A DNA stretch of 64,000 bases from a virus (Duplodnaviria > Caudoviricetes). The position numbers were made by a program, and so were the translations under genes. Numbering within the stretch: position 1 is the stretch's first letter; every line of letters begins with the position of its first letter. This document shows positions 3,987-22,418 of the stretch, one piece after another. The stretch spans positions 88,285 through 152,284 of IMG/VR virus record IMGVR_UViG_3300028833_000074. One strand, 5' to 3'. Under the pieces are notes generated by a model. The model was not told the origin of the DNA and ran no database searches. It worked only from the letters and a program-made list of their open reading frames with translations.

Positions 3987-4119
3987 AGGAGTTAAAAAAT
4001 TACAATTTGCAATGAAGTGAAAATTTATAAGCCCCGATTACATAATCCCAAAAAATTAAATCATGATAACTTATTATTATATCCTTTCGGATAACGAGGC
4101 TTATTATATCATGATTAAG

Positions 4120-4192
4120 TCAGTATAAGTGGATTTGCACCACTATCTCCCACCACGTGTATTGGGTGTTTTACTATTAAACTATATACTGA
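4120..4192 (-). tRNA. tRNA-like element/pseudo-tRNA with an aberrant anticodon arm
   Basis: Acceptor TCAGTATA/TATACTGA, D arm GTTT..AAAC, T arm AGTGG TGCAAAT CCACT; anticodon arm only 4 bp with a 10-nt loop. Confidence 0.7.
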
Positions 4193-4324
4193 TTATGTCG
4201 AATGGGGAAAGGAAATGATTTAATGATTAGTACACCTAACAATTGTGCATAGTAAACGAAGGTAAAAAACCCATTCGACATAACGACAGTTGAATTCGAG
4301 AAATGGAGAAATAACATGCTCCAA

Positions 4325-4397
4325 AGCCACAGACCGGAATCGAACCGGCACTCTACGACTTACGAAGTCGTCGCATTGCCAATTATGCTACTGTGGC
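4325..4397 (-). tRNA. trnT: tRNA-Thr(CGT)
   Basis: GCCACAG/CTGTGGC, anticodon arm ACGAC-TT CGT AA-GTCGT, T arm GCCGG TTCGATT CCGGT; no CCA. Confidence 0.95.
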
Positions 4398-4407
4398 GGA
4401 CAAAGGC

Positions 4408-4767
4408 TTAAACACCTTCATCCCCAATCATGTCATCAAAGGCATGTTCATCATTACCAGCAATATATCTTGTTCCAGCAGTAATTATACCATCAGTAAT
4501 TTGTGGAGCAGTATACGCTGTAATAGCGGCCACATACCAATTACTGAATAATTCTGGTTGAGAATAGGATAAAGCAATTGCTGCTAATACACCTACAATA
4601 ATAGTTGTAATTGAACCAAGATTAAAACTAATCTCTTTTCCATTACGATAAAATGTAGGCAATACAAAACTACCTTTCATAATGACCAGTCTAAAGATTA
4701 TTGCAATAATTATTGCAACATAAATAGTACTATTCAAAATAGTTCCTCCTACGTATGCTATATACAT
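4408..4767 (-). CDS. membrane protein, holin-like
   Basis: About three hydrophobic segments, 119 aa. Confidence 0.55.
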   Translation of the reverse strand: MYIAYVGGTILNSTIYVAIIIAIIFRLVIMKGSFVLPTFYRNGKEISFNLGSITTIIVGVLAAIALSYSQPELFSNWYVAAITAYTAPQITDGIITAGTRYIAGNDEHAFDDMIGDEGV

Positions 4768-4785
4768 ATATAACTTTTCTTATAT

Positions 4786-7424
4786 TTAAATATTTTGGTT
4801 TTTTAACTCATCACAATCAAATTTCAAATTAGCAAAATTACCATCAATATTCAAAGTGACATGCATAGTATTATTATCATCAATAATAATGTTTTCAACT
4901 TGAATGTTATTAATATTATGGCATCCGCCTAATCTTTGCAATAGATTAGGAAAAAGTATAGATGCCAATTCATTGTTAATAAATTCAAATTCAATACCAC
5001 TTTTTAATCTAACAATCTTGCTGTTATTTTGATTATATTCTTTATGACAAACGATAAATAAATCGTCATCAATAATATCAGTTTGTAACATTATATACCT
5101 TCAAAATATAACTATATTGACTTGGTTCTTCGATACTATTATCTTGTAGGATAAAATTATATGTTTCATTAGTTTTAATTTGGTCATATAATATTTTGGC
5201 ATCACCGCTACCATCATCTAAAATACAAAAAGTATCGCCATCTTCTGTCGCAATAAGATAATAATTCGATTCATGACTATGACTATAAATCTTATTAATG
5301 ACAAGGTCTTGTTCTTCTCGAATATGTTTATTGGTAAAGGCTTCATCTGTTAACATTATACCAAAATATAAACCTACAAAAATAATGCTAAATATCACAC
5401 AAAAGCCAATGCAATATTTATATTTTGTCAGAAATTGCATTATTTTTTCGTGCTGCATTTTTCTCACGCTCCAATCTTGCTTGTTCACAAGTAGAACATT
5501 CACTTTTTTTATCAAAATCAAAATTAATAACAAATTTTAATTCTTGTTTTAAATCCGCATCAAGTTGTTGTACACGTTTATTAAACTCTTCTAATACCAT
5601 GTTCTCTAAATGTGTCTCTTCGGCGTCCTTAAAAAAGGTTAAATGATATACAACTTCTTCATCACCATTAATATAATAATTATACCTAATATCTTTTAAT
5701 ATTGTAGTAAAATTATTTTGAATATCATATAAAATATCCATAATAGGTTGATATTTTTTAGAGAGTTGTAAATAATTAATCTCATTTGATACTAATGATT
5801 CAAATAAATCTTGAGTGTGGAATAGCCATAACACTTCATTGCCATTCCAATATTTAAAACGAAATTTATCATTCCTAATATCAATTGTTAAAGATTGTAT
5901 ATTATCAAATTCATCAATATTTTCTGCTCTTATAGAATCATCATACATTAAAACAAGATTAGTTATAAAACCATTTGTATTTAAATAATTTAAAATTTCG
6001 GTTATCTTCTTTATTCTACCTTCACAGCATAAAAAAGCGCAAATACGTAACTCGATAAGAACCATATTAGCATTATACTCTTGAATAAAATACTTATTCA
6101 TTTTCTTCCTCTGATAATATGTCACGAGCCATTAATGCACCCGGATATAAAATGCTTATCATATAGTTATTAAAAGATTGTACATACTCTTGTTGCATAT
6201 TTGGATTTAATATTTTAGAATGGTTTATCATTTTACACGCTCCATATTGTATATATGTATATATAATTTCATTATACTATTTATATGTTACCATTCCCAT
6301 GATATAAATTTGTTTTTCTAAAATATTTTAAGGGATGAAGCAAATGTAATGGAACATCATAAACTTCATGCAAAAAAATATAATATGTTTTGCGTTTCCA
6401 TTTAGGATATATTACCTTCCATTCTTCTACTTGATTGTAATAAAATCGCTTACGTCTTAAACTTTGCTTATGCAATTCTTGGCTTTGCAATGTTAAAAGT
6501 CGTTTGATTTCTAAACGTAACGAATTCATCTCTCGATATTCTTGTATAGATAAAGGATATTTTAAATTGTAATATCGTGATTTAAAATGTAATATTTTCC
6601 GATTAATTTCTTTTTCTCGTTCATAAAATATTTGATTACGACGTGGTCCTCTTTTTTTACCATGATTACCTTTCTTATATCTTTTACCCATTTTTAGACA
6701 TCTCTTTATCTAATTCACGATTGCTTTTTTGCATACAAGATTTAAATCTCTTGCAATCACCGGCTTCGCATTCGATAATAGGGATATCTTTATCTCTTTT
6801 TAAGCAAAAACATATATTATTCTTTAATTTTTCAAGTGTATTCTTTTTTACCATTTTGTCACCCCATATTTTTGAATTTTAATAATTGCATTATACATAT
6901 AATCAATATTACGTTGATTAGTAAAAACTGTAAAAGAATCTTGATTAATCTGAACATCTTCTTTTCTTACGCCACCTTGACCAATATCAATCTCTTCACC
7001 ATCCATCATATAAACTGTGATGAGTGGGTATTTAGATAATAAGCCGGAGAAATAAGAAGACATACTACTTTCGTTAATAAGTGATAATAAGTCTTCTTCA
7101 GACATCGCTATCATCCACCCATGTATAATAAAATGCCACATGAAATCTGCTGTCTAATCCATATTTATATAATTTATACAATTGCTCATTGGGTACTTTA
7201 TCATATACATACTTTGGATGACTATCAAAATGCATGATATTATAATAATCTCTATATTGATACTCGGTCTCTTGAGAAATTTCTTTTAAAATTTCAAATT
7301 CATCATCACTTATATGAATTTCTCTATCGCATAATTCAATATTATGTCTTGACATTTTACTTAAATGATTAATCTGTATTTGATGATTTAAAATTAACTT
7401 TAGTATATACATAAAATCACCCAA
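4786..7424 (-). other. run of hypothetical CDSs (4786-5091, 5078-5458, 5418-6125, 6281-6691 highly basic, 6848-7141, 7098-7424)
   Basis: Co-directional overlapping ORFs. Confidence 0.6.
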
Positions 7425-7995
7425 ATATCACATCTTTAATAATCTGATTAAACTGTTCCATTGTAATATTATCATTGAAATGCATCTGTGATAAATGATG
7501 CACCATTGCAACAGTTCTATATAAGTCACCATCATTATTGATATGGATATCAATTTCAGATTCCGGTGGTAACATAATAAGACGTGCTAATCGCTCAATA
7601 TACTCATCTGTATCATATAATGTTCTTGAAATTAATACTGTACAAGTAGATACATCATCATCAATATCACAAGTCAATTTAATAAAATTCTTGACATCCA
7701 ACACACCTAATTCATCAACAATATAAATATTAATTTTATCATCTACAAACTGTTCTGGTGTTGTAAAATAAAAATTGCCATCAATAAGTGTGCGAGCGAC
7801 CAAACCTTGTTGATGCATTTTATCCCACATTTTTTCTTCTGTGACAAAAATATGTCCATATTCATCTTCGGACCTTTTTGGTCTTGTTGTGTAAGACATA
7901 ATTGGGTGATAAAGATAAGGATATGTCTGACATAATTTTTTCATGATTGTGGTTTTTCCAGTCATAGATTCTCCACATAATAATAAAATCTTCAT
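7417..7995 (-). CDS. guanylate kinase-like protein
   Basis: GESMTGKT P-loop; SYTTRPKRSEDE and HIFVT motifs. Confidence 0.85.
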   Translation of the reverse strand: MKILLLCGESMTGKTTIMKKLCQTYPYLYHPIMSYTTRPKRSEDEYGHIFVTEEKMWDKMHQQGLVARTLIDGNFYFTTPEQFVDDKINIYIVDELGVLDVKNFIKLTCDIDDDVSTCTVLISRTLYDTDEYIERLARLIMLPPESEIDIHINNDGDLYRTVAMVHHLSQMHFNDNITMEQFNQIIKDVIFG

Positions 7996-8104
7996 ATTAT
8001 TACCTCATCATACATTCAAGTTTATATAAAATCGCAAGCAATAAAAAACCTACGAATATCAATAAGAAAAAACCTTGATACATCATTTTTGTTTTCAATC
8101 TCCA

Positions 8105-8620
8105 TTATAATATAATTTCACCATTTAAATATTTTTCACGCAATTCTTCTGGCCACCAGATATCATAACTATTTACCATATCATCTTGCTCATAATAACA
8201 TGTATATGCAATATCTGCATCAGCATCATATAAGCAAGGTGTTGCCCAGATAGATACAATACAAAAATCATATGGAAAATTATCATAAATTTCACATATT
8301 TCACCATCTTGTAACATTTGTGCTTTAGTATAAAACCAATCTTCAGCCAAGCCAACCCATGCATTTTTAATATTATGTCTACGACATAATTTAATAGCAT
8401 ATTTAAAATCAAAAACCTTAAAAGGCTTACCTAATTGATAAAAAACTTGCGCAGTAAATAAAGAAATATCTTGTGGTGTAACTCGTGTTAAATCAATCTT
8501 CCTTCCTTTCATATAGATAACGCTCCTTTGTGTCATTTGGCCACCATGCTTTTGCATGTTTATCCCAGTCAAAGTTGTAAGTTTCATAATAACATTCATA
8601 TGCAATCTCTGCATCTTCAT
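8105..8620 (-). CDS. hypothetical protein, paralog of 8493-8942 (true start probably nearer 8512)
   Basis: Shares KPFKV, VGLAEDW, WATPCLYD and WWP with the neighbour. Confidence 0.7.
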   Translation of the reverse strand: MKMQRLHMNVIMKLTTLTGINMQKHGGQMTQRSVIYMKGRKIDLTRVTPQDISLFTAQVFYQLGKPFKVFDFKYAIKLCRRHNIKNAWVGLAEDWFYTKAQMLQDGEICEIYDNFPYDFCIVSIWATPCLYDADADIAYTCYYEQDDMVNSYDIWWPEELREKYLNGEIIL

Positions 8621-8942
8621 CGTACAAACAAGGTGTTGCCCATCGAGATGCTAAACAATAACCATATGGTACATTTACACCATAGTCATATGGTATACCA
8701 TAGTCAAGCAAAGCGCTACATGTAGGCATCCAATCTTCAGCCAAACCTACAGAAGCATTTATAATATCATGTTCGATGCATAAATCCACAACTTGTTCCC
8801 AATATAAAACTTTAAAGGGTTTATCATTATAGGTACTAATCATATTTTGTAATTCACCTTCAAAAGGATTAGCCTCATATGTTAACTGTATTATTTTATC
8901 CATCATTATCACCCCATTTCCAACCATATAAAAATACATCAT
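8493..8942 (-). CDS. hypothetical protein, paralog of 8105-8620
   Basis: Same motifs as the neighbour. Confidence 0.7.
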   Translation of the reverse strand: MMYFYMVGNGVIMMDKIIQLTYEANPFEGELQNMISTYNDKPFKVLYWEQVVDLCIEHDIINASVGLAEDWMPTCSALLDYGIPYDYGVNVPYGYCLASRWATPCLYDEDAEIAYECYYETYNFDWDKHAKAWWPNDTKERYLYERKED

Positions 8943-11051: not shown

Positions 11052-11096
11052 GGTATAATATTATATATGACTCGATGTCATATATAAATGTTTCTA

Positions 11097-13034
11097 TTAT
11101 TTTTTGCGCTTGCCCCATTGAGTAGGGTCTACAACAAAAGTCTTTTCCCAATCTTCTCCATATGTATCAATCCATTCTTGCATTGTTAAACCCTTGTGAA
11201 AGGCAGCAAATTCACCATGCTGGTATGCTGTATCAAAATAATGCTGTAAATATGCTAAATTCCTTGCATCAAGTTGAATATTGCGTGGTTTTGAAAATGG
11301 TCCACTACGTCTATTACCACCAAATGCTTGAATATCTCGCACTTCATCATCAGTTAAAGTATGCTGACCCATTGATGATAGAGCCAATAATTTTGCAACT
11401 CGCACCATAGGTTCAGATTTCGCAAAAAAATCTTCTTTAGTTGGTAATTCACCATCAATAAATTTACCTTCCTCCCAATTGTAAAATTTACTATCTGGTC
11501 TATCTCCCATTACATTTTTTTTCTGTTTATTGGCTAAACCAACCATTGCTGGCCAATTATTTCCAATATAATGCTCTGGGTTAGCACCACGTAAAGTAAC
11601 CGGACCATCTTCTTTGTCTGGTATCCAAACATCATTTTTTGGTCCATGAATAGCATTACGCATTATATTACGTGTTTTATCATCATTCTGACGTACTTGT
11701 TCTTCGATAATAGCACCTTGCAAATCTGGAGCATAACATAAGGCTACTCCATATTGTGCCTCACATAATTCACAATTTGATGAACAATGATAAATAGGGA
11801 ATAACTTATATTTGCCATCGCCTAATAATTCATTTTCCATATATAAATCATCATCTTCCGCCTCTATATATTCACCTTTAGCATCTTGCGCCACACCAAA
11901 AACCATATCATATTCTTCAAGATATTTTACATCAATACGCCCATCAATATTATCTTTAGTTGTAAATTGACCTTTAGGTACTGGTCGAAATTCATTAGTG
12001 GCCATAAAACTACTACCCATAATGGTAAATCCTTGTTCAATATTTCTACGCTCATCTTCATCAAGTTCATTCAATTCATCTAAATATTTCAAATATACAT
12101 CTGTACGATGTGTATAAATAGTGCTATAAATACGTTTAATGTTATTTTCCTCTTGTCTTTTGGTCCAATATTTTTGTATACGTTCACCTTTACTATTTGT
12201 AATGATTCCTTCAAATAATTTACCAGCACTACGTGCAATCCATAACAATTCTTTACCACTTGCTACATCACCGGCTTCATTCCATCTAACAAAACGAACA
12301 GTATTAGAATTACCCGGTCCAGTTCGTTGCTTATTTAATAAAGCATTAGCAAAATCTTGTGGGTCAAACTCATGTATCATCTTACGTACCATAGCACTAT
12401 TTTTGCGTTTACCATTCTCAACATTACCAATACCGGCAAAAACACCATACTGTATTCTTGTACGAATTTCGTCACCTAATGCATAACAATGTTCACAAAA
12501 TTCACACATTGAACGAACTTTACCATCTGCACCTTGTATCAAAGTGTTTCTTGATACACAATCAACTGCTGGTGATGTATTTATAATCATAATAGATGTG
12601 CTAATTGGCTTATTATTACCACGTTTTGCGTCAAATACAATACTCTTACCCTTCTCTTTTAATTTTTTTACCTTTAAGGTAAAAGCGCTACCATAAGTAC
12701 CGCCAATTAACCTTCCAAATAATCTGGCACGAAATGATTTAGCCGGTCCTTTATCCTTTATTTTAGAATAATATTGCAAATCGGGAACTTTTTGCAATGG
12801 AATCACAGCATCGTCGTCAAGACCTAATGCTTGATGAATGGTTTTATTATATGTAGGCTGCATCTTTGTTTTCTTCTTATCTCGCACATGTGTAACATAT
12901 ACTTTAAGTAATGTACGATTTGTAGGATTTAAAGAACCCTCTTCAATTAATTCTTCTGACACATCGTACTGACGTGCTAATTTTTTAATCTCACCCCAAC
13001 TTATACCTTCAATAATATCGCTATCTTCCACCAT
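11097..13034 (-). CDS. 645-aa protein with a GP88-like Cys-rich core
   Basis: C..CEFCEHCYA, RFVRWNEAGD, YTHRTD, CSSNCELC..CY; shares these motifs with 56018-56764. Confidence 0.65.
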   Translation of the reverse strand: MVEDSDIIEGISWGEIKKLARQYDVSEELIEEGSLNPTNRTLLKVYVTHVRDKKKTKMQPTYNKTIHQALGLDDDAVIPLQKVPDLQYYSKIKDKGPAKSFRARLFGRLIGGTYGSAFTLKVKKLKEKGKSIVFDAKRGNNKPISTSIMIINTSPAVDCVSRNTLIQGADGKVRSMCEFCEHCYALGDEIRTRIQYGVFAGIGNVENGKRKNSAMVRKMIHEFDPQDFANALLNKQRTGPGNSNTVRFVRWNEAGDVASGKELLWIARSAGKLFEGIITNSKGERIQKYWTKRQEENNIKRIYSTIYTHRTDVYLKYLDELNELDEDERRNIEQGFTIMGSSFMATNEFRPVPKGQFTTKDNIDGRIDVKYLEEYDMVFGVAQDAKGEYIEAEDDDLYMENELLGDGKYKLFPIYHCSSNCELCEAQYGVALCYAPDLQGAIIEEQVRQNDDKTRNIMRNAIHGPKNDVWIPDKEDGPVTLRGANPEHYIGNNWPAMVGLANKQKKNVMGDRPDSKFYNWEEGKFIDGELPTKEDFFAKSEPMVRVAKLLALSSMGQHTLTDDEVRDIQAFGGNRRSGPFSKPRNIQLDARNLAYLQHYFDTAYQHGEFAAFHKGLTMQEWIDTYGEDWEKTFVVDPTQWGKRKK

Positions 13035-13050: not shown

Positions 13051-13332
13051 TTATCTATTATTATTCTCTTGTATTAAATACATATATTGTGGATGATTAT
13101 AACACCAATTCTTTAACTCTAAAATACGTTGTTCCATATCATCAAAACGATTCTGATGTATCTTGCGCATCACTTGTTGATATGTTAATGGCTTCTTGCT
13201 TTCTAAATTACGCAAATATTTAACTGTATCAAACGCTGGTATACGCAATAAAGATGGCACATACTCTTCTAACAATTCAAGTTCGGATACAATTTTTTGA
13301 ATTTCTGCAAAATTATAATAAAAATCAGACAT
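13051..13332 (-). CDS. small ART-associated protein (paralog 3; putative immunity/chaperone)
   Basis: ELELLEEYVPSLL...LKNWCYNHPQY; directly downstream of an ART gene. Confidence 0.75.
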   Translation of the reverse strand: MSDFYYNFAEIQKIVSELELLEEYVPSLLRIPAFDTVKYLRNLESKKPLTYQQVMRKIHQNRFDDMEQRILELKNWCYNHPQYMYLIQENNNR

Positions 13333-13340
13333 TTTTTCAC

Positions 13341-14690
13341 CTAATTTATCAACATAATTTCAACTTGTTTTATATCATGGTTTACACCAATTACTTGATA
13401 TTTTTGCCCTTTGCCTAATATAAGTTCATGTAAATCTGTTAATCTTGCATCTGGTACAGCATTCTTATCAACAGATGCAATATGAGAGCCTTTAGGAGCA
13501 TAAATAGTAATTAAATATTCATCACGTCCATCTTCATGTGCAAATTCAAGCGCAACACTTTTATCAAATGATGCAGATGTAATATATTTAAATTCACCGA
13601 CATCACCAACTTCAGCATTTTCATCAAATCTACCGCCCCTATAAAATATCGTATCATTTTCTACACCCGGCAACATACTAATCATCTCATTTAAACTCTC
13701 ACTATATTCTTCAATACTTTTAAAATATTCTGGGTCATCTCCATATTTGCGTATAAATTTTTCTTTAGATTCCTCATCTCCATATACATATTTGCCATAA
13801 TAATCACCTACAGTATAAGTCATATCTAATACATATTTAGAAAGATTTTTATAATAATCATACCATTCATCCTTAAGATTAAAAATACCTTGTGTATCCC
13901 ATTCAAATACTTTACTTAAATGCACATTATTTGCATAAGCATTGACTTGATTAATAATTAATGAACGTTCTTGGTCTCCCCATTGAGTATGTGAGCGTCT
14001 GTCATTAATTAATACTTCTTCATAATCCGAACGATAATTTCTCAAGTCAATAATTTCACCATTAACTTCACGCATCCACATACTGCCATCTTGCATACTT
14101 TCCAATCTACGTATATGTTCATCTAAAAACTCTAAATAATCCTCTAAATTTTTAATACCTTTCAAATAATTATTCTGGCGACTCACCATATCCGCAAATT
14201 TTGTATCTAATCCATCTTCAACTTGTGGTAACATTGCTTTAACTTGCCTATAGGAATACATCATCATATTACCATATGTTGATGGACCAAATTCATCAGC
14301 AATTTCCTTAAATCTTTCTCGAGTTAATGGCATACGCAAATAATCCTCTGGATACTTATTTTTTAATGATTCTAATCTTTCTTGAGCATATTTCTTAAAT
14401 AATTCATCCCCCAATTCTTGCGCTGACTGATTAGTGTTTGTAGCAAACTCTTCATAAAAATCATCTTCAAGACCGGCTTCCATTAAGCCAACTCGAAAAT
14501 CAAATTCTTTACTACCAAGTTGCTTTTGAACAATAGGAATCAATGCCATCTTTTCATCAAAAGTTAATTTTTTACGTTTTCTAACTGTATGATTTTTAAT
14601 GGTCACTTCACCACTAAAATTATCTAATGTTGATTGACCTTGCACTCGTTTAGTGATACGTCTATTTTTACCTTGTCTTCTACGTGCCAT
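13341..14690 (-). CDS. VIP2-like ADP-ribosyltransferase domain protein (ART4)
   Basis: C-terminal FYRGG, ITSAS, IYAPKG, LHELIL (R-S-E class); Arg-rich N-terminus. Confidence 0.85.
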   Translation of the reverse strand: MARRRQGKNRRITKRVQGQSTLDNFSGEVTIKNHTVRKRKKLTFDEKMALIPIVQKQLGSKEFDFRVGLMEAGLEDDFYEEFATNTNQSAQELGDELFKKYAQERLESLKNKYPEDYLRMPLTRERFKEIADEFGPSTYGNMMMYSYRQVKAMLPQVEDGLDTKFADMVSRQNNYLKGIKNLEDYLEFLDEHIRRLESMQDGSMWMREVNGEIIDLRNYRSDYEEVLINDRRSHTQWGDQERSLIINQVNAYANNVHLSKVFEWDTQGIFNLKDEWYDYYKNLSKYVLDMTYTVGDYYGKYVYGDEESKEKFIRKYGDDPEYFKSIEEYSESLNEMISMLPGVENDTIFYRGGRFDENAEVGDVGEFKYITSASFDKSVALEFAHEDGRDEYLITIYAPKGSHIASVDKNAVPDARLTDLHELILGKGQKYQVIGVNHDIKQVEIMLIN

Positions 14691-14700
14691 ACTATCTTTA

Positions 14701-15906
14701 CTATCTGTTTTGCCATTTTCGCTTCATATCATCATCAATCAATAACACAAGGGCCTCACGATTAACTGTGTCAACTGATAATACAATAAATTCTTGATTC
14801 AAACTATGAATAAACTCACTACGACCAGTACTCGTATGAAACCACATTCCTAAATAACGCTGAATTCCAGCAGAAATACCTTTAGTACCTTTAGGAGCCA
14901 ATATAGTTATCCTATAACGTTCACTTTTTTCACTATCAAGACGTTGATAACTTTTATAAATATCTTCTGAATCATAAGAACTAAAAGCAAAACCAGCAAA
15001 ATTAGATATATCACCGGCTTTTAATTCTTGATGATTAAATAAACTACCAAATCGAATAAGAACTGTATCAACTTCTAAACCGGGAGTTTTATCAATAATA
15101 CCTTGAACAGCATTAGTCACACTCGTAATGTAATCAATATCCCAATCCGATGATACCCCATCACCTTCAAATATCTCCGCCCAATATTGAGCGATGCTAC
15201 GCCAATTACCTCGCTGAAACTCTGTTAAAGTCTCATGAATATATTCCAAACGACTATCTGTATCATACTGAACATTTTGCATAAAAGCCGGTAACATTTT
15301 ACGCACATGAGTGGCTTGAACTTCACCAATTATATCCGCTCCTATATCTTGATAAAAAGCATTAATATTTATTCCTAATACATCGGCAATTTCATTAGAT
15401 ATTGATTGAAGATTTCCATCTTGTTGCCAATGTAATGATGTATTATATACAGAAGCAGTATTCGGTACTTCCGGTAAAAATATTCGACCGGAAAACATAG
15501 GATTATCTTCATAATTATCCGGTGAAAGAGTTGGGTCCCATGCTATTGCATCTTCATATTCCATAACTTTTGGACCAAATTCTTTTTGCAATTCTGTCAA
15601 AGGATGTATATTTATTGCTTGAACATAACGTTTTAAGTCCATTTCATCTGCCAAATATTTTTTCCAATCCCACCAATCACCTTCATATTCTTCCATTTCT
15701 CTACGATAATCTATGATTTCATTATGCAAATCTTCAACATCTACAGACTCTCTCCAACGTAACCTTTTATTAACAGTAATAGTTTGACGATTACCATTAC
15801 GTATTTTAATATCCTTATTTACTTTTGGCGCTTGTCGATTTTTATATTTTCTTTTCATCAATTCAAGTCTTGCACGCCTTTTACGCTCTTCGTATGAATC
15901 TACCAT
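14701..15906 (-). CDS. VIP2-like ADP-ribosyltransferase domain protein, divergent (ART3)
   Basis: LIRFG, FAFSS, ILAPKGTKG, RSEFI. Confidence 0.75.
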   Translation of the reverse strand: MVDSYEERKRRARLELMKRKYKNRQAPKVNKDIKIRNGNRQTITVNKRLRWRESVDVEDLHNEIIDYRREMEEYEGDWWDWKKYLADEMDLKRYVQAINIHPLTELQKEFGPKVMEYEDAIAWDPTLSPDNYEDNPMFSGRIFLPEVPNTASVYNTSLHWQQDGNLQSISNEIADVLGININAFYQDIGADIIGEVQATHVRKMLPAFMQNVQYDTDSRLEYIHETLTEFQRGNWRSIAQYWAEIFEGDGVSSDWDIDYITSVTNAVQGIIDKTPGLEVDTVLIRFGSLFNHQELKAGDISNFAGFAFSSYDSEDIYKSYQRLDSEKSERYRITILAPKGTKGISAGIQRYLGMWFHTSTGRSEFIHSLNQEFIVLSVDTVNREALVLLIDDDMKRKWQNR

Positions 15907-16166
15907 ATCAACACGTCTTTATATTGTGGATAATTATCGAGCCACGTGATAAGTTCTTGCATTTTTTCTTGCTCGCTGAATAATGTGGATTTGCTTAAGC
16001 GTCTTCTGATGCTTACTTCATCGGTTGCAGAACAAAATTCTTCAATATTGTCAATCCATAGACGATATTCAAACCATTTTGTACGCAATAAAGAAGGAAT
16101 GTAATCACGAATGTATGGCAATTCATCGCTAATAGAACAAATATAACTTTTATTGAGGTTTGGCAT
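15900..16166 (-). CDS. small ART-associated protein (paralog 2)
   Basis: DELPYIRDYIPSLL...LITWLDNYPQY; start after a GGGGG RBS, overlapping the end of ART2. Confidence 0.75.
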   Translation of the reverse strand: MPNLNKSYICSISDELPYIRDYIPSLLRTKWFEYRLWIDNIEEFCSATDEVSIRRRLSKSTLFSEQEKMQELITWLDNYPQYKDVLIW

Positions 16167-17370
16167 ATGGTTGCCCCCTTCTGCTTCTATATTGGTCACC
16201 TTCATTTAATAATAAAACAGTAACAATATGATTTGTAACATCTTTTTCCAATACAACATATTTTTGATGCGCCATATTAAAAACTTCTCCGGCACTATAG
16301 TGATAACCTTTAAAACGTGAAGCAGCGTTTACTGCTGCTAATTTGCTTTTTTCTGGTGCATATACCACATATAACCAATTACCCCTATCGGCATAAGCCT
16401 CTGCAACATCACGCTTAAAACTAAAAGACGTTGGAGATTTAAACTCTGAAATTTCACCCACTTCTAATGTTTCATCAAAAGGTCCACCCCTAAAGAGCAT
16501 AACATCTTCGGGAAGCCCCGGCAATTGTTTAACAACATTACTGATACTATCAATCATCCATTCCATATACTCAAACTCCTCTTCCATATATTCTTCTAAA
16601 GTCATATCTTTATTTGTATGATTATATCTATTTTCTACCCCATTGTTATAATCTTGAATCATCTCTTCCATAACCTTTACTTTTTGATATACAGCACGAT
16701 TAATAGTGGCGGATATATCGTTAAAGAAGTTTTCAATCGGCCATAATCCATCTTTACCACGAAACGACATACCATCAATATTGATATCAGCATCACGTTG
16801 TAGTTCAATTAATTCAAATTCCATATCAGTTAAAAAATCAGTAAAAGGGTCGCCTTTCATTCTTTCTAAATGGCGCATTACTATTGGATAAGCAGCATTA
16901 TAAAAATCATCATCTAAATTATCCTTTAAGAATTTTTGAAATTTTGGTTTTACAGTCTTAAAATAACTTTCTCTTTTATATTGATATAAACTACGCTTCA
17001 TTTTAAAATTTTCGTGCGCCCAGTCATCTAACAAGTCAGACTTTGCATCATACAAGGCACCCGGCATAGCATCAATAATAACTTGACGTGGAACTACAAA
17101 ACCATCATCAACAATATAACTATCCTTAAAGAAAAATTCAAAATCTTGTATAACTGGAGATTCCCAATCAATAAATTCTCTACTTTGACTTGGACGTGTA
17201 TTTTTTACACGTTTAGTAAATTTTTGTAAATCTTCACCTTTGGAACTTTTAAATACTGCACGTGTGGCTGTTGTATCTGTTTCAACTTCCATACTGCCAA
17301 TCGTAGCCCCAACTTCAACTATAGTATTTTTACGTACATTAATATTACGTTTTCTTTTTCTTCTACCCAT
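16150..17370 (-). CDS. VIP2-like ADP-ribosyltransferase domain protein (ART2)
   Basis: LFRGG, PTSFS, VYAPEK, AGEVF; MGRRKRKR N-terminus. Confidence 0.82.
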   Translation of the reverse strand: MGRRKRKRNINVRKNTIVEVGATIGSMEVETDTTATRAVFKSSKGEDLQKFTKRVKNTRPSQSREFIDWESPVIQDFEFFFKDSYIVDDGFVVPRQVIIDAMPGALYDAKSDLLDDWAHENFKMKRSLYQYKRESYFKTVKPKFQKFLKDNLDDDFYNAAYPIVMRHLERMKGDPFTDFLTDMEFELIELQRDADINIDGMSFRGKDGLWPIENFFNDISATINRAVYQKVKVMEEMIQDYNNGVENRYNHTNKDMTLEEYMEEEFEYMEWMIDSISNVVKQLPGLPEDVMLFRGGPFDETLEVGEISEFKSPTSFSFKRDVAEAYADRGNWLYVVYAPEKSKLAAVNAASRFKGYHYSAGEVFNMAHQKYVVLEKDVTNHIVTVLLLNEGDQYRSRRGQPYAKPQ

Positions 17371-17380
17371 AGAATATCAC

Positions 17381-17662
17381 TTATATAATAAATTTCATAT
17401 ATTTGGGATTTTCATGACACCATTTGGCAAGTTCTTCATATTCAACTTCAACATCAAATTGATTTTCTCGCATTTTTTGCAGCATTTGATACTGTTTATT
17501 TCGCACGTCATCATACATATTATGTTTTTTTAAATTATCATAATATCGATTCATATCAAAAATATAATGCGTAATTAAAAAAGGAATATAATCCGGTATC
17601 ATTTCTAATTCTTCTTTTGCCTCTTCGATTAAACTATAATTAATTTGCATAAAAAACCTCAT
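17381..17662 (-). CDS. small ART-associated protein (paralog 1)
   Basis: EELEMIPDYIPFLI...LAKWCHENPKY; ATGA overlap with ART1. Confidence 0.75.
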   Translation of the reverse strand: MRFFMQINYSLIEEAKEELEMIPDYIPFLITHYIFDMNRYYDNLKKHNMYDDVRNKQYQMLQKMRENQFDVEVEYEELAKWCHENPKYMKFII

Positions 17663-18834
17663 ATCTTAAAGTTATCATCTATTAATAACACTTCTACAAC
17701 TTTTACTTTATTACGTTCGTTTGGAGTAAAACGACCTATTCTGGGGCGTGTATCAAACACAAACATATCATATTCTTCGTGAATACTCATCACATAAAAT
17801 TTTTGATTAGGTGGAAATGTAACTTCATGTTCACCCCCCCAACCACGAAACGCTGGGGATGATGCATGCAGACCACGCATACCTTTAGGTGCATGTACAA
17901 CAATAATATATCTGTCCGGTTCTGTACCGGCAAATTCTTGCGCAACATCAATATTGTATGATGTTGATGTTGGCACTAAAAACTCACCAATATCACCGAC
18001 CTTTAATGAAGCATCAATAGTACCACCATGAAAAAAGGTAATATCTTGTGATAATTCTGGCGCTTTTGAAAAGGCACTTTTAACACCATCTATCATTGGA
18101 ATAATTTCTTGCTCTAAATATTTTTTTTGTTCAGAGATACGCATACTGGCCATTTTATCATTAAAAGAACGTACGTAATTATTATCATTAGATACTCCAT
18201 GTGTATGTAACATATATCCTTTCATATTATAATACGAACCACCATAATATTGATTCATACCCCATACTTCATTATCATCAAAATACATAGGAGTTTCTAT
18301 TAGAGGAGTCAATTCTGATGCTTCTAATCTTGATGTGGTATCAACAACATCACTAAAATTAAAAGCATCAATATCAATATTGTTTTTTGCTAATGTTTCT
18401 AAAACTTTAGGGTCACGTTGTCCTTGACAAAATTTTATTAACTCTGGTATTGTTTCTAATTTACGTTTCTTAATACGCTCTTGCTTTTGAGCCATAATTT
18501 TAGCATTTTTATCTGCAATTTTTTTATGAATCAATGCTGATTCTAATGCATTAATATCAAGACCAGCATTTAACATAGCCATATCTAACTCATCAGCGTT
18601 TTTAGACTCGTTAACAATACGAGAATACTCATCAAAATCCATTAAGTTATTTAATATATAATCACTATAAACTTTTGAAAAAATTCTTTTATATTTTTGT
18701 TGTAATTTTCGTAATTTTCTTAAATGATAATTTGATATTTTTCCACGATTATAAATCGTTACACTATTCTTTCCACCACGAGCCTTATTTGCTTGTCCTA
18801 CACGTTCCCTTGAATGTGATGTAAATCTTGCCAT
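17659..18834 (-). CDS. VIP2-like ADP-ribosyltransferase domain protein (ART1)
   Basis: FFHGG, PTSTS, VHAPKG, EHEVTF (E-x-E). Confidence 0.85.
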   Translation of the reverse strand: MARFTSHSRERVGQANKARGGKNSVTIYNRGKISNYHLRKLRKLQQKYKRIFSKVYSDYILNNLMDFDEYSRIVNESKNADELDMAMLNAGLDINALESALIHKKIADKNAKIMAQKQERIKKRKLETIPELIKFCQGQRDPKVLETLAKNNIDIDAFNFSDVVDTTSRLEASELTPLIETPMYFDDNEVWGMNQYYGGSYYNMKGYMLHTHGVSNDNNYVRSFNDKMASMRISEQKKYLEQEIIPMIDGVKSAFSKAPELSQDITFFHGGTIDASLKVGDIGEFLVPTSTSYNIDVAQEFAGTEPDRYIIVVHAPKGMRGLHASSPAFRGWGGEHEVTFPPNQKFYVMSIHEEYDMFVFDTRPRIGRFTPNERNKVKVVEVLLIDDNFKI

Positions 18835-18885: not shown

Positions 18886-18919
18886 TACTTCTATATTCGA
18901 TAGTATATAAACACCTTTT

Positions 18920-18959
18920 AAAAAATAAAAAAAAGAACGCAAGAAATTAATCTTGCGTT
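18920..18959 (-). terminator. hairpin plus T-run terminator
   Basis: AACGCAAGA/TCTTGCGTT stem followed by a T-tract on minus. Confidence 0.7.
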
Positions 18960-19564
18960 TATGCTTTTTGGAGATACTTGCGACTGTATCCCATCTTCTC
19001 TTTTCCGCAATTGCCACAAAAATCGCTGTCACATCTTGAACAAGTCAGTTCTCGTTCATGACGTGCGTTGTGCTTGTGTGCATTATATATAGTTCCATAA
19101 TGGTGGCAATTCGGGCAATAACTGACGTATTTTCTTGTTCGCCAAGTGTACGATTTTGAACAGCGTCCACAACTTGGTTTACAAGTAATTGATACTGTCG
19201 GTTTAGGAATTGTAAACTTGCCTTTTGTTGTGACTTTTTTATATTTCTTGTCACCGGCAAATTTTGCTGTAAAAGTATGTGTGCCAATTTTAGAATAAGT
19301 TGTTTTTACTTTTGCAACACCTTTGGCATTTGTTGTTGCATGATAGTTCGAGCCTTTTACAGAAAACTTAATTTTCTTTCCTTTAATAGCCTTGCCTTTT
19401 GCTGTTGTTAACGTGGCGTATAAGTTTTTGCCTTTTGATTTGACAGTTAATTTAGTTTTTTCAACAGTCTCATCGCTTACAGCAGCAAGCGGCACAAGAG
19501 TTCCTATTATAAATAATATCAATATGATTGATATTATTATTTGATTTGTTTTAATGTTTTCAAT
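18959..19564 (-). CDS. secreted adhesin-like protein: Ig-like repeat plus Cys-rich C-terminus
   Basis: Signal peptide; GKKIKFSVKG..ATTNAKGVA..FAGDKKY as in Methanobacteriales adhesin repeats; probable ATT start at 19564. Confidence 0.75.
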   Translation of the reverse strand: MENIKTNQIIISIILILFIIGTLVPLAAVSDETVEKTKLTVKSKGKNLYATLTTAKGKAIKGKKIKFSVKGSNYHATTNAKGVAKVKTTYSKIGTHTFTAKFAGDKKYKKVTTKGKFTIPKPTVSITCKPSCGRCSKSYTWRTRKYVSYCPNCHHYGTIYNAHKHNARHERELTCSRCDSDFCGNCGKEKMGYSRKYLQKA

Positions 19565-20049: not shown

Positions 20050-21534
20050 TCATTTTATTCTCCTATCCCATATATTTCGATTTAATTCTTTTTCTTTTTT
20101 ATCGGTATGGTCCGGCACCATATTATAGGTGGTGCGCCAACAAGTTGTTTTGTGGCATTTTGGGCAAGAAACATATTTTTTATCTGAAAATAAAAAAAAT
20201 ATCTTAAGCAAGAAAAAAGGAAAGAAATTATCTGTGCCGCAATAATTACAGCGCAGATTATATTTTTTATATAATTTTCCTTGTTTAATTTTTGTTGAAA
20301 TCACACCATTCACCATCCTTAATACGTAAATATACACCTAAATCACTAATGATACATAAATATGAAATACCTTTAACCTCTAAAAATAATTCCATTGTAT
20401 CATTGACCTTGATGCGTATAAATTTTTTATGGTCACGAAAATACTCAATTGCAGTATGCATATGAATATTGTCAACTTCAAGATGCATATACATATTATC
20501 ACCTATGATAAATAAAGAAAATCACCTACAAATACGTCATCTTCACAAAAAGGCACATAAAAATCATCTTTATGAAAATCAGCCAATATTGTTTCACATG
20601 GCAATCCATGACAGTCATTGTATACACATACATTAACATTACCATATTCTTCTTGACATTTTTGTAGATATTCAATAAGTTCATCTAACATCATATTTTC
20701 ACCCTTACTTATATATATGACATTTATAGTATATATACTTTAAAGATTTTCTCTATTTTTTGCGAATCTGATTATTGCACTAATCTTCATTTCCATCCCA
20801 TTCGTGTATATGGCTTCTTGTACTATATGTTGAGCCACTTCCTTCTTGCACAACAATAATAAATTCACCAATCTCACTATCATATGTGATATAATCAATA
20901 TCATAATACATATCTTGCTCTTTGATTACAACATTCACCGGCAAATTAGCGCCTAATTGAGCCAACCTTGCAATAATCTCTAAACTCATCATCATTGTAT
21001 CACGCTTTATCATTCAATATCGCAACTACCTCTTTGATATTTAAAGCCCTATTTGTTTCTGTATCCCATATCGTATTCACATATTGGTCAGATATCTTAT
21101 ATCTATCACTTTTAAACACTTTAAAATAATCTTTCCCATTTTTCCATTCCATCCAATCACTCATCATCTTCCCTTTCGCTATTGGATTCCACTACAAAAT
21201 ATTTCTTCTCTAAATATGGACAGTCTTCCCATAAGACAAAAATATCATTGCTGTGCAAACAATTTGGTTTGCAAATATATTTTTCATCTGCTTCTTCATT
21301 ATATACGAAATATTCACACCAAGTGCAAGTTGGTGGCGCTTCAATAATTCTTTTGTTGGCATTGCGAATTTCTTCTTCCAACATTTTAATCTTATCTTCT
21401 TGCTTATTCAATAAGTCGCATACATCTTTTGCACCATAATATGTTAGACAAATGGTCACCAATTCTTTATCGACCACATCATAAACCATTATCGGTTGTC
21501 CATCTGCATCGACATCAATCATATATCTTGACAT
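20050..21534 (-). other. small hypothetical CDSs (20050-20337 Zn ribbon, 20285-20494, 20503-20694, 20780-21013, 21157-21534)
   Basis: Co-directional ORFs with GGTGA RBS. Confidence 0.55.
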
Positions 21535-22418
21535 TATAAATCACTCCTATTGTTTTCATTGTATAATTGGAAATATTTCGGCTCTAATCTGTTATATAGT
21601 TTTACAACCATATTCTTTTCTATCAAATTGTACACTACACTATATATGGTATACTCAAATTTATCTTGCACATCTGTAACGCCATAAATTTGCTCAACGC
21701 TGCCAAGCAAATGCATTGTTTCATTAATGGGGCTAAAGATATCTTCGCAATTATTTAAGCAACCAAGCAAGTAAGTAAGACGCTCGAAACGCTCATCTGA
21801 TGAGTATCCACCGGCAAGTCCATCGGTTTTGCGCCCCCTTGAGTACCATACTGGGTCATTGCCATAATTAGATACACTATCTCCAATCATACTTAAGCCG
21901 AATTCACAAATATCTTTTTGCAATGGATATGGGGGATTATTGGTCATCACATCATTATGATATACTTTTAAGCCATCAATGGTTTGCTCAACAATGATAG
22001 CATCGTTCTCATCACAAATAAACCAATGCATATCAGTATTTTGTATTGTATCTGAATAGTTCTCATTGGTGATATTTACATCAATAAGCCATTCTTCAAC
22101 TGTAGCAACATCCCTAAATTGTCCTAATATTTCAAAAACAAATTGATATGCTGGTATATTTATCATAAATTCTTCTGGCTCATTATAGTGAGCATTACCA
22201 GTAAACGCTAATGCCCCACAAAATAAGCCACATTCATTAATCCCATCATATAGAAGGGGATATTCTTCGGCTATTCCACTACATATTCCTAAAATTGCGA
22301 ATCCACTATCGTATTCGTCTCTTTTGATTTTTATTATTTGCTCTTGGTAGGACATTTCATAGTCAAAATTCCTACCGACGCAATGTTTATATTTCAATGC
22401 GGTACACATCTTATTCAC
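21534..22418 (-). CDS. choloylglycine hydrolase/penicillin V acylase family (Ntn, C59) hydrolase; likely start at 22409
   Basis: M-CTA catalytic Cys, GRNFDY, DGINECGL, HWFICD, VMTNNP, SSDERFER. Confidence 0.9.
   Translation of the reverse strand: MNKMCTALKYKHCVGRNFDYEMSYQEQIIKIKRDEYDSGFAILGICSGIAEEYPLLYDGINECGLFCGALAFTGNAHYNEPEEFMINIPAYQFVFEILGQFRDVATVEEWLIDVNITNENYSDTIQNTDMHWFICDENDAIIVEQTIDGLKVYHNDVMTNNPPYPLQKDICEFGLSMIGDSVSNYGNDPVWYSRGRKTDGLAGGYSSDERFERLTYLLGCLNNCEDIFSPINETMHLLGSVEQIYGVTDVQDKFEYTIYSVVYNLIEKNMVVKLYNRLEPKYFQLYNENNRSDL

Follow-up and report, generated by a model that had tools for sequence, protein, structure and literature searches.

The DNA analysed here, referred to as the window, is a 64-kb stretch (bases 88285-152284) of the 152,284-bp virus record IMGVR_UViG_3300028833_000074. 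Across positions 13051-18834 its minus strand carries an array of four genes for predicted ADP-ribosyltransferases (ARTs) and three small paralogous genes (88-93 aa), in the order ART-A, smA, ART-B, smB, ART-C, ART-D, smC. ART-A and smA are replaced as one block, with sharp conserved borders, between near-identical viruses. Judging from sequence comparisons and structure models, we consider it on balance probable that the locus encodes polymorphic ART effectors, probably delivered with the virion, each of them checked by a cognate non-enzymatic inhibitor.

Exchange of the ART-A/smA cassette

Comparison of the window with the related virus L001 gave 93-99% identity for the neighbouring genes and for ART-B, ART-D, smB and smC, and 90.5% for ART-C; the two ART-A proteins are 30% identical and the two smA proteins 48%. 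The corresponding DNA alignment is near-perfect up to codon 32 of ART-A, collapses there, and recovers some 20 codons short of the smA stop. A third allele of the pair is present in the viruses L004 and L013, and the trees of ART-A and smA recover the same three allele classes; this agreement covers the allele level, and the deep nodes of the ART-domain tree lack resolution. Co-variation of the kind known for toxin and immunity genes, between conserved recombination borders, is thus what is found at the ART-A/smA cassette, and a block swapped in this way is the signature of a polymorphic effector that needs a matched partner.

Linkage of the small genes to ARTs in other viruses

Every viral small gene that could be placed sits directly downstream of an ART of the same subfamily, so the neighbourhood survey that the first-pass annotation of the window had suggested does find the viral copies together with ARTs. 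The four related viruses of the 152-kb type have three small genes per genome. In a less closely related virus, whose single ART is of canonical form (308 aa), one small gene follows that ART (hhalign 96%), as is also seen in L014. Two independent MuF-ART fusions, which lie after the terminase and portal genes, are each followed by one as well (hhalign values of 99.3% and 99.2%). The Phage_Mu_F domain (PF04233) is present in the relatives P0015, P0019, P0023 and P0057. The small downstream open reading frame (ORF) typical of MuF toxins is found in the window as well, where smA, smB and smC abut or overlap ART-A, ART-B and ART-D. Because the delivery part varies among all these loci (MuF, four private domains, or almost none) and the ART domain is constant, the function of the small proteins appears to be tied to the ART domain.

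The whole 152,284-bp genome has four ART and three small genes, with none beyond the array. Searches of GenBank phage records with ART-D and with an 85-aa partner (tblastn) gave no match, and a search for related loci returned nothing either among viral contigs, with two of the alignments, or among genome contigs, with P0164 and a further alignment.

A different arrangement was observed in L026 (positions 4001-8666), a 126-kb contig that is either viral or a metagenome-assembled genome (GCA_016295295.1). It holds a tandem series of at least five paralogous ARTs, again of this subfamily, which have a common N-terminal motif (M-V-Q-Y-K-T-I-I-K-A-I-E-D-Y-L), indicating that multi-ART arrays recur in big viruses. 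A single 93-aa ORF after the first of these ARTs has end motifs like those of the small family; its score is non-significant (probability 2.7%) and it is a lead only.

A small gene in a chromosomal defence island

One member of the small family, P0164 (89 aa), was found on contigs from 35 blocks of the collection, with no ART within 10 kb on either side in any reading frame. Its closest viral relative is smB (56-64% identity), and in the tree it is nested within the smB clade (support 100/98). Its similarity to the virus DNA (69-74%) ends at the ORF limits. The ratio of nonsynonymous to synonymous substitutions (dN/dS) between P0164 and viral smB lies around 0.24-0.36, the synonymous sites being close to saturation, and the gene has its own TATA-like box and a GGGTGAT ribosome-binding site.

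The neighbours of P0164 are ZacA, ZacB and ZacC (PADLOC E values down to 1e-293), a NucS-like protein of 285 aa, an unknown protein of 240 aa and a complete type I restriction-modification system. On contig L015 (8871-18920) the NucS-like gene, the orphan, the 240-aa gene and the full restriction-modification system form a 10-kb insert between ZacC and a PD-(D/E)XK gene. A sister contig with flanks 94-95% identical is without this block and runs on into glutamate-synthase-like, XseA/B and ArcS-like (archaeosine) genes. The variable insert, ZacABC, the restriction-modification system and the ArcS-like gene together indicate a strain-variable defence island on an archaeal chromosome. The locus has about 28% G+C, and the record labels suggest ruminant gut metagenome assemblies. 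On every contig with both flanks visible the 285-, 89- and 240-aa genes occur together, and may constitute a separate unit.

We put forward tentatively that an archaeal host has domesticated an smB-type viral anti-ART inhibitor, which would serve there in defence by itself and travel with type I restriction-modification genes on a mobile cassette of 10 kb. Such capture would drive the rapid allelic turnover of viral ART-inhibitor pairs and would constitute an 'antidote capture' arm of antiviral immunity, directed at injected effectors and not at nucleic acid. We regard this as possible, with the balance leaning somewhat to the other side.

Identification of the ARTs

Direct searches of all seven array proteins against Pfam and PHROGs gave no ART match (PF03496 included), and a profile of the four ART sequences matched no ART among the PDB sequences. 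A profile built from the C-termini of the four ARTs recovered 604 relatives among 1.8 billion representative proteins. The nearest ones outside the virus group either score above the PF03496 (ADPrib_exo_Tox) cut-off, being found by the four-ART profile at E values of 1e-31 to 1e-20, or are Phage_Mu_F fusions that carry this domain at the C-terminus. A 35-sequence profile that includes the window ARTs matches the Lmo0066 ART (1e-15), Certhrax, Vip2, C3 and SpvB in PDB, and the consensus of these 35 sequences reads L-Y-R-G-G ... F-T-S-T-S-Y ... Y-A-P-K-G-T-K-G ... E-H-E-x-L-L.

The last 188 residues of ART-D (262-449), the only one of the four ARTs that was modelled, gave an AlphaFold model with a predicted local distance difference test (pLDDT) of 82 and a predicted template modelling score (pTM) of 0.76. 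Its top Foldseek matches are iota Ia, CDTa, C3bot, C3larvin, Certhrax and Vip2 (E about 1e-7, probability 1.0, template modelling score about 0.5), and the model shows the helical N-sub-domain and split beta-sandwich of the ART fold. The identification of the four large proteins as Alt/VIP2 (C3-like, R-S-E) ADP-ribosyltransferases is supported by these transitive profile matches and by the fold, so the VIP2-like assignment first made by eye from the letters holds.

The shared C-terminal domain and the unrelated N-termini of the first-pass annotation also stand, with a correction of length. BLASTP finds the four proteins alike only in the C-terminal region (E 1e-5 to 1e-17, matches starting at about residue 180-260), where the ART domain including its helical sub-domain takes up about 190 aa. 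The N-terminal regions are mutually unrelated (hhalign probability at most 0.4%) and measure about 190-270 aa, not 270-330. A search of the Atlas with the N-terminus of ART-D gave no usable match. All four ARTs have in common a basic leader (residues 1-45, isoelectric point (pI) 11-12, charge +6.5 to +10.7), the remainder of each protein being acidic; that this leader is a packaging or nucleic-acid-binding arm is speculation.

The active-site motifs differ among the four paralogues (Table 1), and each variant is fixed within its orthologous group down to about 30% identity. The catalytic Glu is present in all four window ARTs and in each of the 35 aligned family members. All four alleles of ART-A keep His-for-Arg together with S-T-S and E-x-E, and all orthologues of ART-C have lost the first Ser of S-T-S. 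Since these paralogue-specific sites are fixed in orthologues, they argue for four maintained enzymes of differing specificity and not for decay. The His-for-Arg change was also observed in the unrelated family members P0025, P0029, P0035 and P0042 and is a recurrent variant.

The small-protein family

The three small genes, already taken for paralogues of about 90 aa when the window was first read, are true paralogues with 24-38% identity and 15 invariant columns. Members of the family are 85-101 aa long, acidic to near neutral (pI 4.9-6.1) and rare among 5.8 billion protein clusters. The model of smA is a compact helical domain (pLDDT 93). No Pfam, PHROG or PADLOC family was matched by the small proteins, and the smA model found no convincing match in Foldseek PDB, the ESM Atlas or VIA-align wide (best Z 3.4), a result that does not imply a novel fold. 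No fused or longer forms were found, which is weak evidence. With 85-101 aa, an all-helical structure and no Pfam match, the proteins are too small for a known ADP-ribosylhydrolase (ARH), and a distant structural kinship is possible. They constitute a new family without a curated match, confidently folding and coupled to an Alt/VIP2-type ART subfamily.

Proposed mechanism and alternatives

We propose that the operon encodes four diversified mono-ADP-ribosyltransferase effectors (putative activity), in each of which a strongly basic leader of 45 residues comes first, then an N-terminal domain particular to that ART and probably responsible for delivery or targeting, and last the catalytic domain. 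A translationally coupled small helical paralogue, the putative 'immunity' inhibitor, follows three of the ARTs; it would bind the ART domain and silence the enzyme in the producing cell. Free ART would act on host targets, most likely once the virion has delivered it to the next cell, on the pattern of T4 Alt and of the relatives fused to MuF. Effector and inhibitor would co-evolve and be exchanged together by recombination between the conserved borders, and an archaeal lineage may have captured an smB-type inhibitor into its defence island, where it would neutralise incoming ART-B. That the ARTs are packaged in the virion we infer from the relatives fused to MuF, from the basic leaders common to all four ARTs and from precedent in phages (PMC9503650); binding, inhibition, enzyme activity and the defence role of the orphan are predictions as well.

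The notion of a polymorphic effector/immunity (or chaperone) system goes back to the first-pass annotation and has been strengthened by the cassette swap, the strict linkage to ARTs and the defence-island orphan. These same three observations, with the MuF-ART fusions counted in the linkage, favour an inhibitor over a chaperone. The inhibitor model is ranked first because a host would gain from an inhibitor of an incoming enzyme and nothing from a packaging factor or an activator. ART-C, which has no partner, is the sole paralogue with a degraded S-T-S motif, and this also fits the model.

Several points weigh against this interpretation. The connection between the missing partner and the degraded motif of ART-C rests on a single case, and small-protein/ART binding and ART activity are both predictions. 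The E/Q-x-E pair of the ADP-ribosylating turn-turn (ARTT) loop is present in ART-A alone, ART-B, ART-C and ART-D having no first E/Q, and ART-A has His where Arg is expected. No PF04233 domain was found in the four ARTs or in the whole 152-kb genome at E values up to 0.1, and the array lies outside the head-morphogenesis module, away from the capsid genes. The archaeal assignment of the orphan locus comes solely from the ArcS-like neighbour, which scores below the curated cut-off and lies on the 94-95% identical sister contig; P0164 itself might be a mere relic with no working role in defence. Finally, the conserved C-terminal E-L-x-x-W-x-x-x-x-P-x-Y of the small proteins could be a docking motif, fitting an adaptor.

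Such an adaptor would be a packaging chaperone, gripping the ART with its variable N-terminal two thirds and docking with the conserved C-terminal motif to a capsid or portal component. Effector chaperones of type III and type VI secretion systems work in this manner. The persistence of the motif across diverged small paralogues, the acidic nature of the small proteins and the co-variation of smA with all of the variable portion of ART-A, the non-catalytic middle included, are what one would expect of it. However, the family also follows MuF-ART fusions, in which MuF is the capsid-targeting part (PMC5576092, PMC11699363), and it follows a short single ART, which links it to the ART domain; a lone chromosomal copy beside restriction-modification genes is hard to explain for a packaging factor. 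We therefore hold the adaptor to be unlikely, and we give no better standing to the idea that the ART/small pairs are virus-borne toxin-antitoxin or exclusion modules of a resident virus and not effectors of host takeover, acting with nothing packaged against competing viruses or plasmids that are without the matching inhibitor. On this idea it is hard to account for four ARTs that all begin with a basic leader and each have a long N-terminal domain of their own, and the ART relatives are head-protein fusions. This has to be set against the resemblance of the toxin-then-small-gene order and the allelic polymorphism to polymorphic toxin and toxin-antitoxin loci (PMC3482391), and against the position of the array outside the structural module of a genome that is without a MuF domain.

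It is quite improbable, in our view, that some or all of the four ARTs are pseudo-enzymes, NAD-binding or purely structural and with no transferase role. No curated model matches them directly and their sites are non-canonical in the ways listed above, yet the catalytic Glu is invariant, each variant is conserved in orthologues, the R-to-H change is met in other family members too, and dedicated, co-varying partners imply an activity worth controlling. The least probable alternative gives the small proteins a positive role, as cofactors or specificity subunits that assist the ARTs, such as target adaptors. An activator of a viral enzyme would bring a host no gain if kept in its defence island, and where ART toxins are known to have non-enzymatic partners, these are inhibitors (PMC11699363); strict pairing and co-variation would suit a cofactor, however, and ART-B and ART-D, having no usual E/Q specificity residue, might need a helper.

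Relation to known systems

MuF toxins carry immunity genes directly downstream (PMC5576092), and in a Bacteroides stercoris prophage Bsi, encoded after Bxa, is non-enzymatic and binds and blocks the ART (PMC11699363). The present locus resembles Bxa-Bsi(-BAH) and the MuF toxins in having virus-encoded C3/VIP2-type ARTs with a small gene immediately downstream and a polymorphic toxin part, and the relatives of its ART domain are MuF fusions followed by the same small family. It differs from them in having neither a MuF domain nor an ADP-ribosylhydrolase partner, and in belonging to an archaeal virus with four ARTs in one operon, whose four unrelated N-termini have basic leaders. The small family is likened to Bsi by gene position and putative function.

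Like T4 with its Alt, ModA and ModB, this virus has several Alt/VIP2-family ARTs, presumably with different targets, and T4 Alt is packaged in the head and injected (PMC9503650, PMC10468400). The ART genes of T4 do not form a tandem array, however, and packaging in the present virus is a prediction only. We know of no dedicated small partner genes for Alt, ModA and ModB, and of no allelic cassette exchange described for them.

Polymorphic toxin systems likewise combine a conserved N-terminal stretch with a variable toxin and a cognate immunity gene that are co-swapped by recombination, and their immunity genes also occur toxin-free in other genomes (PMC3482391). Here, in contrast, the conflict would be between virus and host or between viruses in archaea instead of between bacteria, the variable block starts after only 32 codons, and the orphan is found among restriction-type defence genes of the presumed host. 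In Tre1-Tri1, Lmo0066 ART-ARH (PDB 6drh, 8za7) and DarT-DarG an R-S-E or related ART toxin is neutralised by the adjacent gene, and Lmo0066 is the best PDB sequence match of the ART family profile. The immunity proteins of those systems are ARH or macrodomain enzymes of about 150-350 aa, whereas the candidate here is an 85-101-aa helical protein.

Box-A promoters, the ruminant-gut-like labels of related contigs and the gene exchange with an archaeal chromosome point to a gut or rumen archaeon as the host. That the virus is archaeal had already been suggested at first reading, and box-A promoters of methanogen type and the gene exchange fit this. A check for PeiW-type lysins (PF12386) gave no match, and the control genomes were equally silent. 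To our knowledge, almost nothing has been learned of host takeover by methanogen viruses. Phage ARTs, including MuF-fused ones with small downstream genes, are known already, and ARTs have been found in two haloarchaeal tailed viruses (PMC8651126). What is new, besides the small family and its strict coupling to one ART subfamily, is that an archaeal virus has an operon of four ARTs with paired partners, that near-identical viruses exchange an effector and its partner as a block, and that a partner gene occurs as an orphan in a defence island of an archaeon.

The locus offers four candidate host-modifying enzymes with putative specific off-switches. The small family travels with Alt/VIP2-type ARTs both in archaeal viruses and in MuF-toxin viruses, and a large archaeal virus, apparently lytic, shows cassette exchange in the style of polymorphic toxins. 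As the orphan suggests, retaining an antidote to an injected viral enzyme can be a means of host defence, something hinted at before in Bacteroides phage systems only. The small proteins could serve as specific ART inhibitors in laboratory use.

Organisation of the transcription unit and neighbouring genes

The gene coordinates bear out the minus-strand order ART-small-ART-small-ART-ART-small that had been read from the ORF list. Eight genes, the array and a 645-aa Cys-rich gene as the last, are tightly packed on this strand between 11.1 and 18.9 kb (Table 1), with spacers of -17 to +10 nt within the array and a gap of 16 nt from smC to the 645-aa gene. The small genes were correctly described as abutting or overlapping the upstream ART, and their ribosome-binding sites overlap the 3' ends of the preceding ART genes. 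Two of their starts needed revision: smA begins at Met5 and smB at Met14 of the earlier call, at ATGs that have ribosome-binding sites and agree with the orthologues. The box upstream of ART-A is the likely operon promoter, as no spacer in the array is roomy enough for another one, and the next TATA box lies at 11081-11088, just past the 645-aa gene. The tight packing, the terminator and box upstream and the position of the next box make the eight genes resemble one transcription unit with an archaeal-type promoter.

Table 1. Features of the ART array and its borders in the window, with the active-site motifs of the four ARTs.
Feature	Coordinates	Strand	Arg position	S-T-S position	E/Q-x-E position	Remarks
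Terminator-like hairpin + T-run (18920-18937)	18939..18956	-				From sequence reading; ends the Big_1/zinc-ribbon gene upstream of the array
TTTATATA box	18904..18911	-				Perfect match to archaeal box A/TATA consensus; ~70 nt upstream of ART-A start; likely operon promoter
ART-A, 391 aa	17659..18834	-	His	S-T-S	E-x-E (E-H-E)	Basic leader aa 1-45 (pI 11.9), unrelated helical middle, ART domain from ~aa 199
ART-A, first 32 codons	18739..18834	-				Near-identical in all alleles; left border of exchanged cassette
Hypervariable cassette	17444..18738	-				ART-A codon 33 to end and ~first 69 codons of smA
smA, 89 aa	17381..17650	-				Acidic, all-helical; predicted cognate partner of ART-A
ART-B, 406 aa	16150..17370	-	Arg	S-F-S	A-G-E	
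smB, 88 aa	15900..16166	-				Start overlaps ART-B end by 17 nt; GAAGGGGG ribosome-binding site upstream
ART-C, 401 aa	14701..15906	-	Arg	F-S-S	x-x-E (R-S-E at those three positions)	Sole ART without its own small gene
ART-D, 449 aa	13341..14690	-	Arg	S-A-S	L-H-E	
smC, 93 aa	13051..13332	-				Predicted partner of ART-D; ribosome-binding site TAGGTGA overlaps ART-D stop codon
645-aa Cys-rich protein	11097..13034	-				Weak lead to GP88/DUF7227; last gene of the transcription unit

The 645-aa Cys-rich protein is 99% identical in L001 and 40% identical in L013, where its neighbours are 70-84% identical, which makes it another fast-evolving member of the unit. Upstream, at 18959-19522 on the minus strand, lies the gene of a very basic 187-aa protein (pI 10) with a Big_1/Big_3_5 Ig-like domain (Pfam) and a C-terminal four-Cys IBR-like zinc ribbon; all related viruses have this gene ahead of the array, and its end is marked by the hairpin and T-run terminator. 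A choloylglycine-hydrolase-family (CBAH) gene is located a few kb from the ART locus (21534-22418, minus strand), and a CBAH gene is also found near the ART of the distant single-ART virus L007 (4493-5344).

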